From sequence record NC_019505.1: a stretch of 64,000 bases of DNA; one strand, written 5' to 3'. Both the position numbers and the translations under genes were made by a program. This document shows, in pieces, positions 29,788 through 40,272 of this stretch. The notes under the pieces were generated by a model. It was not told where the DNA came from. It saw only the letters and a list, made by a program, of their open reading frames with translations, and did no database searches. Within the stretch, counting starts at the first letter, position 1; each line of letters starts with the position of its first letter. Origin of the DNA: Escherichia phage wV7.

Positions 29788-30374
29788 TGCATTCCAATCA
29801 CAAAAAATTGAGGACGAACTGTTTCACCTGTTTCAGCATTATAGCTTCGACAACAGTGTTGTACCGTTTTAATATGGATATTGTAAATCTTATCCATATC
29901 AGGAGCTTTAATAGGTTCGTCAATTATGTACAAGATACGAGAAAGCGATAACCCACGGAATTTATGACCTTCATTACCGATAAAACTACGGACAGAATCA
30001 GTAAATAAACGGAATCGAATATCATCATTAGAATAACGCGAAAATTCCTTTTTAATGTTATTTGCAGAAATTTTAGCGTAAGCTGAAGTATTAGAAAGAA
30101 CAATAACTGTTCCGCCATCATACAGCCAATTAGCAGCAAAGTTAGTCACAGCAATTGATTTACCGGATTGACGTCCACCATCTATACGAAGTGTGCAGTA
30201 CTGTTTGAGCACATCTTCCATTGGTGGAAGATAATCATTCTTACAAATTTCTTCTACTCTAGCATCAGAATGGTGTGTAAAAGCATTCATCAGGGATAGA
30301 TAAGGACCAGTTAAAAATGTTCTCATTTTATTCTCTCTAAGTTTGGGCCATTCCGTGGCGCATGAATTGTCCAT
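29784..30374 (-). CDS. Small P-loop NTPase of unknown function
   Basis: 196 aa; Walker A GGRQSGKS and Walker B-like ILYIIDE. Confidence 0.55.
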   Translation of the reverse strand: MDNSCATEWPKLRENKMRTFLTGPYLSLMNAFTHHSDARVEEICKNDYLPPMEDVLKQYCTLRIDGGRQSGKSIAVTNFAANWLYDGGTVIVLSNTSAYAKISANNIKKEFSRYSNDDIRFRLFTDSVRSFIGNEGHKFRGLSLSRILYIIDEPIKAPDMDKIYNIHIKTVQHCCRSYNAETGETVRPQFFVIGMQ

Positions 30375-30467
30375 TTCTGTATTTACCCATTACCGCACTT
30401 GGGCTCGACCTTATCACAGGTTGGCGGGAATCCCTCACAGAATCATGAGGTCCAGGTTGTTCCCATA

Positions 30468-30941
30468 TTATTTGAACGATTTAACGTACTGAATAGAACC
30501 CTTACTATTCACAAAGGCAATTTTACCATTTTTATTATACATGGTAGCAGTACGCTGATAACCATAGGTTTGTTTACCAGATTGATAACCAACTAATGCA
30601 AAATTATCTTCACCCATTTTATTCTGTTTAGCGCGAATGCGTTCATGACCATGTGCCATAAGAACCTTAGCATCACCAGTTGCAATGGATCGACGAGTTT
30701 TTTCATCTTCAACTGCATTAACAAAGTCGTCAAATGAATCAAATTTAGCATGAGATTTATTATACAATTTTCCATCTACTGCATAATTATATCCCTGTAC
30801 ATCCATCTCAACTTCTGTACCATCATCCAATACAGCAGTAATTTTTTGACCTTTTTTAAATTTCAAAAGATCAGTAAAAGATTCAGCAATAATTTGAGAA
30901 TTAATAGCTGCTTCAGTGATAAATTCTTGATATGTTTTCAT
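30468..30941 (-). CDS. Internal head protein-like, with capsid targeting sequence
   Basis: 157 aa; N-terminus MKTYQEFITEAA is the T4 internal-protein leader with an L/I-x-E prohead-protease site; sits directly downstream of denV. Confidence 0.7.
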   Translation of the reverse strand: MKTYQEFITEAAINSQIIAESFTDLLKFKKGQKITAVLDDGTEVEMDVQGYNYAVDGKLYNKSHAKFDSFDDFVNAVEDEKTRRSIATGDAKVLMAHGHERIRAKQNKMGEDNFALVGYQSGKQTYGYQRTATMYNKNGKIAFVNSKGSIQYVKSFK

Positions 30942-35459: not shown

Positions 35460-35735
35460 TTATTTCATATTATTGAAATATTCTTCTGCGATTTCGTCGT
35501 TATCATGGTAAACTTTAGAAGACAGTTTAACATAACCTTCAGCAGTGAACATGTTAATCACAACCTTTACAGTATACCACTGACCATCTTCATTACCCAT
35601 TACTGCGTAAGTTTCAAACATCGGATGATCAGGACCGATAACTTTAATATCATTCACTGTACGACCAAAATCTTCTGAAACACATTTCATAAAGAAGTTG
35701 AACAGTTCACCGTAATTATCCATTTCATTCTCCAA
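35460..35735 (-). CDS. Hypothetical protein
   Basis: 91-aa ORF immediately downstream of an early promoter. Confidence 0.55.
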   Translation of the reverse strand: MENEMDNYGELFNFFMKCVSEDFGRTVNDIKVIGPDHPMFETYAVMGNEDGQWYTVKVVINMFTAEGYVKLSSKVYHDNDEIAEEYFNNMK

Positions 35736-35766: not shown

Positions 35767-35796
35767 ATAGTACCATAGAAGAACAGGGATGTAAAC
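35767..35796 (-). promoter_or_regulatory. T4-type early promoter
   Basis: GTTTAC -35 and TGgTACTAT extended -10; A/T-rich upstream element. Confidence 0.6.
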
Positions 35797-35926
35797 AGTT
35801 TTGTGAAAAAATTTTTAAAAAGTTTTGGGGAATTCTAGGGCAGGGAGGGGAAATCAAAGGATAGGATAATATATTATAAAGGGTAGAAACTAAATGATGT
35901 CTAGAGAGGCCTGGAAAGGCCTAGAT

Positions 35927-35960
35927 ACCAAAAAGCCCCAACCTTTCGGCTAGGGCTAAG
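35927..35960. repeat. Direct repeat copy 1 flanking internal-protein cassette
   Basis: ACCAAAAAGCCCCAACCTTTCGG shared exactly with 36486-36508; 2-3 mismatches in the following 11 nt. Confidence 0.7.
35930..35955 (-). terminator. Rho-independent terminator downstream of cassette internal-protein gene (repeat copy 1)
   Basis: Minus RNA CCCUAGCC-GAAA-GGUUGGGG followed by CUUUUU. Confidence 0.6.
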
Positions 35961-35964
35961 AATG

Positions 35965-36438
35965 TTATTTGATTTGTTTAGCAGACCAAATGCGGTCTTT
36001 AATAATTTTTTGGATGTCTTCAACATACTCAAGAGAGTGAGCATGTGGATTATCTTTGAAACTATAAGCACGAGCTAGTTTTTGGCCTTCAGTTTTGATT
36101 ACTAAAAGCTCTTTAAGGATAGCTTCATATTTGGAGATAATTCCTTTAACAATATTTTTCTCTTGTGCGACTTTAGGATCTGCTTTAGGAGCAGGTTTAC
36201 CCGAAGCCTTTGCAAAAGCAGCGCCAGTAGCAACTAAACTTTTCCAGGCCATACTAACTGCATTTCCCGTAAATCCTTCCGCTTTCATGTCGCGTGCGAA
36301 CTGGAATCGCGATTCATCAGAAGCATCTTTATAAGAATATTTACCCGCTGCAATGGCTGCTTTTGCGACAGCTTGAATTTCGGTGCTAGATGCTTCATTT
36401 AACACCGCTTCATTTAAAAATTGAGTATATGATTTCAT
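35965..36438 (-). CDS. Internal head protein-like, with capsid targeting sequence (cassette gene)
   Basis: 157 aa; N-terminus MKSYTQFLNEAV is a leader variant; minus-strand TATAAATA 40 nt upstream; flanked by near-identical terminator repeats. Confidence 0.65.
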   Translation of the reverse strand: MKSYTQFLNEAVLNEASSTEIQAVAKAAIAAGKYSYKDASDESRFQFARDMKAEGFTGNAVSMAWKSLVATGAAFAKASGKPAPKADPKVAQEKNIVKGIISKYEAILKELLVIKTEGQKLARAYSFKDNPHAHSLEYVEDIQKIIKDRIWSAKQIK

Positions 36439-36478
36439 CTTATTTCCTGTTTTAATTCGTGGATTTAATATACTACTA

Positions 36479-36486
36479 TATTTATA
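36479..36486 (-). promoter_or_regulatory. Late promoter (TATAAATA) of cassette internal-protein gene
   Basis: Minus TATAAATA 40 nt upstream of ORF start 36438. Confidence 0.6.
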
Positions 36487-36519
36487 CCAAAAAGCCCCAA
36501 CCTTTCGGTCGGGGCTAAG
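36486..36519. repeat. Direct repeat copy 2 flanking internal-protein cassette
   Basis: Same 23-nt core as 35927-35949. Confidence 0.7.
36489..36514 (-). terminator. Rho-independent terminator upstream of cassette internal-protein gene (repeat copy 2)
   Basis: Minus RNA CCCCGACC-GAAA-GGUUGGGG followed by CUUUUU. Confidence 0.6.
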
Positions 36520-36825
36520 CCTTGCGGCAACCTTGTCGGGGTTCCACCTGCTAAGGCAAGTGTTTGTACGAAACGCCGGGATTCGAACCCGGTTATTAAG
36601 CAGTTGACGCTACTCAATATTTTTAAAAGGCCATATCTCGACCATATCCGAACGTTCCGTCAAAAACGCTACTCGGCTTACGGCAAAGATATTTCCTCGA
36701 ATCGATAATTCGGTGCGCCGTTTCTACTGTGATGTAAGAGGGCATCAATAAACGCAAAGATTATTAACGCAATTCCTTACTCAGGGAACATCAGTCCGAC
36801 GACTTACCGGTAGCGACCCGGTTTC
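36515..36825 (-). ncRNA. Candidate small stable RNA region with tRNA-like T-arm (possible analog of T4 RNA species 1/2)
   Basis: About 310 nt non-coding stretch downstream of tRNA-Arg; perfect T-arm-like hairpin CCGGGTTCGAATCCCGG near 36566-36592; ends at a terminator; boundaries not determined. Confidence 0.3.
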
Positions 36826-37176
36826 TTAATATTCTTTTAAAGCATCAATCTGTTTACGGCGTTCACGCCATAAATCAATTGCTTCATACGCGGATTCAAC
36901 ATTTCGAATTGGACGGCATTTATATAAAGATTTGTGATTTTGATATTGCGTAGATAACGGAATTTTATCTAAAAGGTCTTTACGTTCAAAGTATTCGTAA
37001 CCATCTAAGCCAAATGAACGATTTTTGAGAAATTGCCAATGACCAAATTCGTTTTGAATATAAATATAATCCGCATGTTGATAAAGTAAATTAATTTCAC
37101 GAAATGAGATATGTTTTTCATATTCATTGAAGTAAAATGTTAAATCATGAACTACTAAATAAACATTACCTTTCAT
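36826..37176 (-). CDS. Hypothetical protein inside tRNA region
   Basis: 116-aa ORF with strong GAGGAAAA RBS, just downstream of tRNA-Arg. Confidence 0.5.
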   Translation of the reverse strand: MKGNVYLVVHDLTFYFNEYEKHISFREINLLYQHADYIYIQNEFGHWQFLKNRSFGLDGYEYFERKDLLDKIPLSTQYQNHKSLYKCRPIRNVESAYEAIDLWRERRKQIDALKEY

Positions 37177-37274: not shown

Positions 37275-37350
37275 TGGGGTGACCGATGGGAGTCGAACCC
37301 ATGACTACGAGAATCACAATCTCGAGTTCTACCAACTGAACTACGGTCAC
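37275..37350 (-). tRNA. tRNA-His (anticodon GUG), CCA encoded
   Basis: Acceptor GTGACCG/CGGTCAC, anticodon stem CGAGA/TCTCG with loop TTGTGAT, discriminator C; no encoded G-1. Confidence 0.7.
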
Positions 37351-37464
37351 ATTAATACCTACTCCAACAATCAAGATGTCTTCACACGAAATTAAGAGAA
37401 GAGTGATCAGTTCAACCCCTATAATCGCGTCAAGTAGATATTAATGTGACAGTTGTCACAAATT

Positions 37465-39198: not shown

Positions 39199-39228
39199 AT
39201 AGTATCACTACTAAAACCCCGTGTAAAC
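39199..39228 (-). promoter_or_regulatory. T4-type early promoter
   Basis: GTTTAC -35 and TGaTACTAT extended -10; AACAACTTTGTGAAATTATTTTA upstream element. Confidence 0.6.
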
Positions 39229-39240
39229 AACTTTGTGAAA

Positions 39241-39498
39241 TTATTTTAAATCTTCTAATCGTTTCTTCATCTTAGAACCATTTTTAGCGATTTCTCCTGC
39301 GTCAGAGCATAATGCTAAAAGTGCTTTAACTTTAGTTTGGTCTCCTTTAAAAGACGAAGGATCGACTGCAGCAGCAAGTTCTTTAATACGAGAGAAAAGA
39401 CGCTCAGCTTCAGCTAAAGCCATTCCAAGCTTTACTTCCATACCATGAGAAGATTCAGTGATAATAGTTTCTGTAGCAAACTCTTTATAAGTTTTCAT
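39241..39498 (-). CDS. Internal head protein-like (ipI position), with capsid targeting sequence
   Basis: 85 aa; N-terminus MKTYKEFATETI; own early promoter; adjacent to 57B as in T4. Confidence 0.7.
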   Translation of the reverse strand: MKTYKEFATETIITESSHGMEVKLGMALAEAERLFSRIKELAAAVDPSSFKGDQTKVKALLALCSDAGEIAKNGSKMKKRLEDLK

Positions 39499-39533: not shown

Positions 39534-39563
39534 ATAATATCACTTCTCCATCATCGTGTAAAC
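39534..39563 (-). promoter_or_regulatory. T4-type early promoter of ipI-like gene
   Basis: GTTTAC -35 and TGaTATTAT extended -10; same upstream element. Confidence 0.6.
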
Positions 39564-39575
39564 AACTTTGTGAAA

Positions 39576-40272
<697 letters not shown>

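Follow-up and report, generated by a model that had tools for sequence, protein, structure and literature searches.

We analysed a 64,000-nt stretch of the genome of Escherichia phage wV7 (NC_019505.1; hereafter the window) and found that a minus-strand open reading frame (ORF) of 157 amino acids (aa), ORF A (35965–36438; RB32ORF132c, RB68_138), is best explained, on the evidence as a whole, as a T4-type internal protein that has hitherto escaped annotation. We place the probability of this reading, which is drawn from sequence comparison, at roughly 0.7. The anatomy of the locus, its polymorphism and breakpoints, the family membership of ORF A, the conservation of its leader and the sharing of its 5’ module are established by computation. 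Genes of this kind and layouts of this kind have been described before; the family and the site have so far gone unannotated. Because the site is empty in T4, the family has never been studied.

The first line of evidence, strong but indirect, is the N-terminus. The capsid-targeting sequence comprises 10 residues, with positions 4 (aromatic) and 7 (Phe) serving targeting and positions 8 and 10 processing; the motif of the gp21 prohead protease is L/I-x-E, and residues 1–10 of T4 IPIII suffice to package foreign proteins (PMC9026906). The translation of ORF A starts MKSYTQFLNEAVLNEA... (also written MKSYTQFLNEAVLNEASS...), and its leader MKSYTQFLNE has Y4, F7, L8 and E10 at these positions. For comparison, T4 IPII and IPIII start MKTYQEFIAE/A and IPI starts MKTFKEF...ITE/A (slashes mark cleavage sites). 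An earlier reading made from the letters and predicted frames (the sequence-only reading) had proposed a 157-aa ORF with an internal-protein leader here, and both the frame and a match to the T4 capsid-targeting sequence and protease site are present. The pattern M[KLI]x[YF]xxF begins only 3 of the 618 Met-initiated frames of at least 40 aa in the window: ORF A and the genes for Ip4 and Ip5.

Leader codons 1–15 (36394–36438, minus strand; MKSYTQFLNE/AVLNE/A) hold two protease-motif sites, LNE/A at residues 8–10 and 13–15, the second derived from a tandem duplication of five codons (15 nt, 36394–36423, minus strand; LNEAV / LNEAS). The Mosigvirus and Jiaodavirus homologues have a single cleavage-type site. 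In the homologue alignment neither F7 nor the Glu of the predicted cleavage site varies, and nearly all homologues keep an [L/I/M]-x-E site, down to about 35% identity and lower; two distant homologues have F-C-E or L-S-E in its place. Homologues that retain little identity still begin with the leader, and most of them place Ala, Gly, Ser or Gln directly after an [L/I/M]-x-E site.

ORF A matches phrog_2280 over its full length (E 2.9e-60; PHROGs v4, unknown function). So do two further proteins, gene B of 187–188 aa (RB69ORF149c / RB14 orf136; leader MKTYAEFLTE/AAKL) and a 205-aa form from Dhakavirus and Mosigvirus, with E values of 1e-53 to 1e-60 across all three. By tblastn, phage records numbered 510 for ORF A, 165 for gene B and 144 for the 205-aa form, and carriers of the family include RB32, RB51, RB68, AR1, PP01 and BASEL Bas42. 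Two very large protein searches returned 13 homologues each, the identified ones all from T4-like phages. One of the two was a profile search of 1.84 billion representative proteins, in which the matches retrieved were leader-bearing relatives except for one unrelated repeat protein; it yielded no link to any known family. BLASTP detected similarity between A and B in the leader only, and hhalign of the A alignment against the B alignment reached 85% probability across 23 columns only; the relationship is therefore distant, and the link between the two rests on their common full-length match to phrog_2280. With one exception, the 165 records of gene B share at least 95% identity, across two genera, which suggests recent spread.

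The phrog_2280 members that we examined are all tRNA-proximal, occupying the interval between rnaC and e.8 in Tequatrovirus and Mosigvirus and lying just 3’ of the tRNA cluster elsewhere. At this site the homologues of ORF A are 95–100% identical in amino acid sequence within Tequatrovirus, about 76% in Mosigvirus, about 52% in the Klebsiella Jiaodavirus phiKp_22 and 55% in the Yersinia phage fHe-Yen9-01 (Tegunavirus). The divergence between Tequatrovirus and Mosigvirus (76%) falls inside the 65–90% range of neighbouring genes. Since A has diverged as its neighbours have and occupies the same site in four genera, gene A is probably ancestral and was lost in T4, the T4/PST state being a deletion. 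The sequence-only reading had regarded the cargo as a variable novelty, a description contradicted by the 510 phage records, the shared site in four genera and the graded divergence; vertical descent with repeated loss fits these data better than the recent arrival of a cassette. The phage phiR1-RT, a relative of fHe-Yen9-01, carries neither A nor B (L030, 5688–6081), and we read it as a further loss, so that presence/absence polymorphism recurs in Tegunavirus. In fHe-Yen9-01 itself (L018, 1422–2537) a B-like gene is followed in tandem by an A-like gene, both starting ML[QE]Y[NS]EFLKE.

The predicted mature protein of ORF A has 142–147 aa, a mass of about 15.5 kDa, 24 Lys plus Arg residues and an isoelectric point of 9.6, as compared with 9.0–9.65 for T4 IPI–III. 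An AlphaFold model is all-helical, with six helices arranged as an N-terminal bundle, a Lys/Pro-rich linker and a C-terminal helical hairpin (pLDDT 74). A Foldseek search of this model against PDB and BFVD returned only its own orthologue; Pfam and NCBIfam gave no match for ORF A, and a PDB sequence search gave none of note. None of the internal-protein profiles recognised ORF A, whereas Ip4 and Ip5 do match PHROGs annotated as internal virion or head proteins. Neither sequence nor predicted fold resembles the known GmrSD inhibitors. The GmrSD enzymes inhibited by T4 Ip1, Ip2 and Ip3 differ from one protein to the next, and the three proteins are mutually similar in the leader only (PMC12373910), so the missing match does not exclude a GmrSD-inhibitor function for ORF A.

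What a packaged A protein would do is a separate question. It may be a general DNA-associated head protein, acting in charge neutralisation, condensation or ejection, rather than a specific anti-defence inhibitor. The basic character of the mature protein and its Lys/Pro-rich linker would suit such a role, as would the conservation of the family over genera with differing hosts, in which it departs from the hypervariable classical internal proteins, and Lys residues of T4 internal proteins do touch DNA phosphates (PMC3012670). We nevertheless consider a general role less likely than not, though conservation and charge make it a serious alternative. Gene A is dispensable and often lost (T4, PST, KIT06, phiR1-RT), T4 IPII and IPIII are just as basic yet are specific GmrSD inhibitors (PMC12373910), and of the two halves of the A protein the N-terminal one has changed faster, which is how a target-binding surface under selection would be expected to behave.

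The second line of evidence is the setting of the gene. ORF A is bracketed by direct repeats of one hairpin, upstream at 36484–36519 and downstream at 35925–35960 (36 nt each; 33 of 36 positions identical). The sequence-only reading had described such terminator repeats, and the hairpins and their bracketing of the ORF stand; the longest unbroken identical core is 25 nt (ATACCAAAAAGCCCCAACCTTTCGG) and not the 23 nt it had given. A 20-nt core of the repeat, allowing up to 3 mismatches, occurs twice in the window and in none of 100 shuffles. Both copies are called as intrinsic terminators of the minus strand with a 10-bp stem, a GAAA loop and a U5 tail. Predicted folding energies are -20.3 kcal/mol for the upstream copy (stem-loop 36493–36516, U-run 36488–36492) and -18.3 kcal/mol for the downstream copy (stem-loop 35934–35957, U-run 35929–35933), with z about -3.5 and none of 200 shuffles as stable. 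The upstream copy would end the tRNA/rnaD/rnaC unit; the downstream copy, 4 nt past the stop codon, would terminate the ORF A transcript.

Across an alignment of 13 distinct copies of the hairpin, 89% of cells are paired. One C-G pair has changed to G-C in four sequences, a compensatory change that probably represents a single event, and five pairs are altered on one side only yet remain paired, mostly through G-U. As those G-U pairs are possible in the minus-strand transcript only, the pattern is consistent with a terminator acting on that strand. Folding is less favourable in some variants (CCCCTTCC), which contain two internal mismatches. Neither hairpin has a match in Rfam.

A candidate late promoter, TATAAATA (36479–36486, minus strand), begins directly after the T-run of the upstream hairpin, about 34–40 nt 5’ of the ATG of ORF A. 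The repeat stops at GGTAT within this motif (GGTAT/AAATA), so that the promoter is complete in the upstream copy only. No early-type promoter was found between the upstream hairpin and the ATG. Read along the minus strand, the layout is rnaC, the hairpin, UUUUUGG, TATAAATA, about 34–40 nt that include a Shine-Dalgarno sequence (AGGAAA, 36443–36448, 4 nt 5’ of the ATG), and the ATG; then the frame to its TAA, 4 nt, the hairpin, UUUUUGG, a second small hairpin and the early promoter of e.8. Hairpin, T-run and TATAAATA are kept 5’ of homologues in Tequatrovirus, in Mosigvirus/Dhakavirus-like loci and in a Klebsiella Jiaodavirus.

Comparison with relatives showed that the repeats coincide with the limits of a presence/absence polymorphism. 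Over the 1.1 kb spanning the locus, identity is 100% with the Tequatrovirus Escherichia coli O157 typing phage 7 (KP869105) and at least 97% with RB51, RB68, RB32-type and many further coliphages. In T4 the 285 bp that separate e.8 from rnaC hold a single hairpin copy and no gene, and PST is likewise empty. The single hairpin of T4 and PST is chimeric, combining the left flank and hairpin variant of the upstream copy with the right flank of the downstream copy. Filled and empty sites thus differ by one repeat plus the inter-repeat sequence, exactly 559 bp, and the hairpins are spaced by 559 bp in the window, RB68, ime09 and pSs-1, in contexts holding A only as well as B and A. We sampled 60 rows of the 735 records matching the T4 empty-site query. 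In this sample the commonest class had a site about 559 bp longer than that of T4; other classes were about 610–695 bp longer or had flanks too distant to join. Empty sites were those of T4, KIT06 and SHFML-26 (the last two by span only).

Gene B occurs alone in Shfl2 and, with an internal deletion, in CT01, and A and B stand in tandem in ime09, pSs-1 and the Mosigvirus PhAPEC2, in the order rnaC, hairpin with TATAAATA, A, hairpin, B, a different hairpin, e.8. Four states of occupancy were therefore seen (empty, A, B, and B with A), and the boundaries of the A unit are the same with or without B. These observations bear out the exchange-cassette layout proposed by the sequence-only reading, in that the unit is insulated and its repeats are the exact boundaries of presence and absence. 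The refuting condition that it named, flanking repeats not conserved in relatives, does not apply in Tequatrovirus and part of Mosigvirus; in some other relatives the downstream hairpin is a different one.

The hairpins might instead be mere terminators, with the polymorphism produced by recombination in the flanking e.8 and rnaC sequences or by co-conversion that SegB, the homing endonuclease of the neighbouring tRNA region, would drive. The flanks are indeed alike between genera (293 of 312 positions identical across rnaD–rnaC between Tequatrovirus and Mosigvirus), segB or its remnants lie within 1–2 kb in T4, PST and RB68, the hairpin is not dispersed through the genome, and Comeau et al. 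name two parallel routes, homing endonucleases and general recombination (PMC4122927). Exchange through the flanks can carry alleles further, yet it does not make junctions as precise as those seen here, where filled and empty sites differ by exactly one repeat and the intervening sequence and the same 559-bp unit recurs with and without B. As a full account we regard it as rather unlikely. The two mechanisms are compatible; repeats may create alleles that flank recombination then spreads.

Further arrangements of the hairpin came from IMG/VR, which gave 10 loci per query. Two contigs carrying a divergent hairpin variant, L026 with A as cargo and L025 with a 205-aa cargo, share a 5’ module of hairpin, T-run, TATAAATA, untranslated region, ribosome site and 16 codons that is identical at 112 of 114 nt, and their local alignment ends just past the Glu-Ala codons, that is, at the protease cleavage site. 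Both hairpin copies of L025 carry TATAAATA. In L025 and L027 a leaderless gene for a DUF7338 membrane protein lies between two copies of hairpin plus TATAAATA, ahead of the internal-protein-like gene, whereas in L026 and L028 the DUF7338 gene follows A and is itself followed by a hairpin copy. The hairpin, found beside cargo in several arrangements, thus marks cassette junctions, and we conclude from these alignments that the regulatory elements and the leader move as one block. The DUF7338 protein (184 aa, phrog_2143; L025 1636–2187, L026 2326–2880) is a further cargo of the hotspot, and its gene order looks permuted, as excision and re-integration would give.

The first 10 residues of IPIII suffice for packaging, and ORF A has Y4, F7, L8 and E10 in a phage with the same head machinery, so its protein should be packaged. 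That ORF A is instead an ordinary late cytoplasmic protein, left out of the head and resembling the leader through common descent of its 5’ region, is in our view highly improbable: packaging of A is inferred, and PHROGs and, among the matches listed, GenBank assign no function, but leader and cleavage site are the best-conserved short feature over very distant homologues and the block in which the leader is swapped has its end precisely at the cleavage site.

Taken as a T4-type internal-protein gene, ORF A would work as follows. Early and middle transcripts of the tRNA/rnaD/rnaC unit would halt at the upstream hairpin; late in infection, gp55-directed RNA polymerase would initiate at the TATAAATA abutting it and produce a monocistronic mRNA ending at the second hairpin copy. 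The leader of 10–15 residues, with Y4 and F7 for targeting and L8/E10 and L13/E15 for cleavage, would bring the protein into the prohead core, where the gp21 protease would cut the leader off. The basic, all-helical product would remain in the head and enter the host with the DNA. Its likeliest role in the cell, by analogy only, would be to neutralise a host nuclease such as a type IV restriction enzyme of the GmrSD type. Recombination between the direct repeats would remove or re-insert the exact 559-bp unit, generating the four observed states, and hairpin, late promoter, ribosome site and leader would be swapped as a unit before different mature coding sequences. More tentatively, and at somewhat less than even odds, the tRNA-proximal site may be a third internal-protein hotspot of the Tevenvirinae with a portable module of terminator, late promoter, ribosome site and leader, by which any coding sequence recombined behind it would become a late, head-packaged and injected protein, and phrog_2280 (about 800 records) a family of injected anti-defence effectors deleted from T4.

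Several observations weigh against the identification of ORF A as an internal protein or against parts of the scheme. PHROGs places phrog_2280 outside the internal-protein families, and GenBank records, among the matches listed, all name its members hypothetical. Virion proteomics, N-terminal sequencing or genetics were not found in the literature for any phrog_2280 member. We located no published virion proteomics of a carrier phage, and phiR1-RT, for which virion data from liquid chromatography–tandem mass spectrometry (LC-MS/MS) exist, is without the gene. Literature searches also found no mention of RB32ORF132c or of leader strings. The modelled fold is of moderate confidence and matches nothing in PDB or BFVD but its own orthologue. 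In this AT-rich window TATAAATA occurs 12 times against 10.6 expected, which is chance level, and in some homologues AATAAATA replaces it. We therefore discarded the motif count as promoter evidence; the late promoter that the sequence-only reading had assigned to ORF A is supported by its position and by its conservation in relatives. The hairpin is a local duplicate, with two copies in the 64-kb window, and not a dispersed shuffling motif, and in Jiaodavirus, Tegunavirus and some Mosigvirus/Dhakavirus-like loci another hairpin stands as the downstream terminator. The classical hypervariable internal proteins are also much less conserved than gene A, whose strong conservation fits a specific arms-race inhibitor less well.

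Leader-bearing, variable internal proteins encoded at polymorphic loci were reported by Repoila et al. 1994, as cited in PMC12373910, PMC3012670 and PMC4122927. ORF A resembles T4 IPI–III and Ip4–Ip10 in its capsid-targeting leader, its L/I-x-E site, its small size and basic charge and in being non-essential and variably present; like T4-type internal-protein genes, it is flanked by conserved regulatory sequence. By eye, and without alignment, it shows no resemblance to T4 IPI–III, Ip4 or Ip5 past the leader. It differs from known Ip genes in its location: the literature consulted names two Ip loci, and the interval between e.8 and rnaC, empty in T4, is a third. It differs from classical internal proteins in its conservation across four genera, in its duplicated leader cleavage site and in being nowhere annotated as one among the listed records. 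Silas et al. tested ip4–10 against a GmrSD panel and obtained no reproducible hits; nothing places phrog_2280 among the genes tested (PMC12373910). The PHROGs entry for phrog_2280 gives neither function nor category, and the leader, locus and late promoter/terminator context are described here for ORF A.

The Ip4 and Ip5 genes of the window lie in or beside the two classical loci. That of Ip4 (30468–30941, minus strand; 157 aa, phrog_3155, internal virion protein) belongs to the PST IpIV family and comes after denV. PST IpIV also has 157 aa, and we rejected the identification of ORF A with it, as the two are unrelated beyond the leader and the true Ip4 of the window is the gene at 30468–30941. 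A G+C-rich stretch of about 130 nt, at about 30340–30465, lies 3’ of the Ip4 gene and is also present in PST (L003, 300–440); Rfam gave no match to it, and it contains no obvious ORF. The Ip5 gene (39241–39498; phrog_3499, internal head protein) is at the classical ipI locus, bracketed in a PeSL-like manner by 58-nt direct repeats (39199–39256 and 39534–39591; 86% identical). These hold the T4 early promoter TTTACA-N17-TAYTAT, and a weaker third copy (35767–35824) is the promoter of e.8.

In T4-type genomes the shuffling of modules is mediated by the elements called PeSL and PmSL, which combine a terminator stem-loop with promoter motifs (Arbiol et al. 2010, PMC2839356; Comeau et al. 2014, PMC4122927); in that work they flanked accessory ORFs, stood as a single copy in relatives and were accompanied by detectable excised mini-circles. 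The ORF A locus shares with PeSL a terminator that abuts a promoter, direct-repeat copies flanking a non-essential ORF and a relative with a single chimeric copy, a configuration that the PeSL authors attributed to mini-circle excision and integration. The differences are threefold. The promoter of the hairpin cassette is the late TATAAATA, whereas those of PeSL/PmSL are early sigma-70-like (TTTACW-N17-TAYWAT in the T4/PST group) or middle; the hairpin motif is local to one hotspot, with 2 copies in 64 kb, whereas PeSL are dispersed over many sites of the hyperplastic regions; and the hairpin module in some relatives, unlike PeSL, runs on through the ribosome site and 16 leader codons, adding a packaging signal.

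The genes of the locus are all on the minus strand, in the order (from RB68/T4 annotations) tRNA cluster, 116-aa ORF, rnaD, rnaC, ORF A, e.8, an e.7-like gene and e.6. The second small hairpin, AGGCC...GGCCT (35901–35924), just past the downstream terminator, is a conserved flank that also stands beside the single hairpin of T4. The conserved downstream neighbour e.8 (35460–35735, by annotation and homology) has its own early-type promoter, TTTACA-N17-TACTAT (35767–35795; identified by repeat family and promoter search), so ORF A is transcriptionally separate from it. The stable RNAs rnaC and rnaD (species 1 and 2), the conserved upstream neighbours, map to about 36567–36829 by coordinates carried over from the RB68 annotation (L001, offset 31199); they are 94% conserved between genera, and no Rfam match reached E 0.1. 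Between rnaD and tRNA-Arg lies the 116-aa ORF (36826–37176, minus strand; RB69ORF150c-like, phrog_3355, unknown function), which T4 lacks, making this position another insertion/deletion difference beside ORF A. T4 has 8 tRNA genes together with segB, the window 11 and no segB. Between tRNA-His and tRNA-Asn the tRNA cluster of the window has a gap of 114 nt (37351–37464), bounded by a 24-nt inverted repeat (37340–37363 and 37433–37456; 88% complementary).

The ORF A cassette does not overturn current understanding. T4’s three internal proteins block different GmrSD enzymes, which makes leader-bearing proteins an obvious source of injected anti-defence factors, and hundreds of therapeutic and typing coliphages carry the phrog_2280 family, labelled hypothetical in all the records listed. 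Recognising ORF A as a probable internal protein would add a third internal-protein site, provide candidates for host-range screens and improve annotation. The 114-nt module would offer a natural example of a packaging signal exchanged along with a promoter and a terminator, extending the PeSL idea to late promoters.

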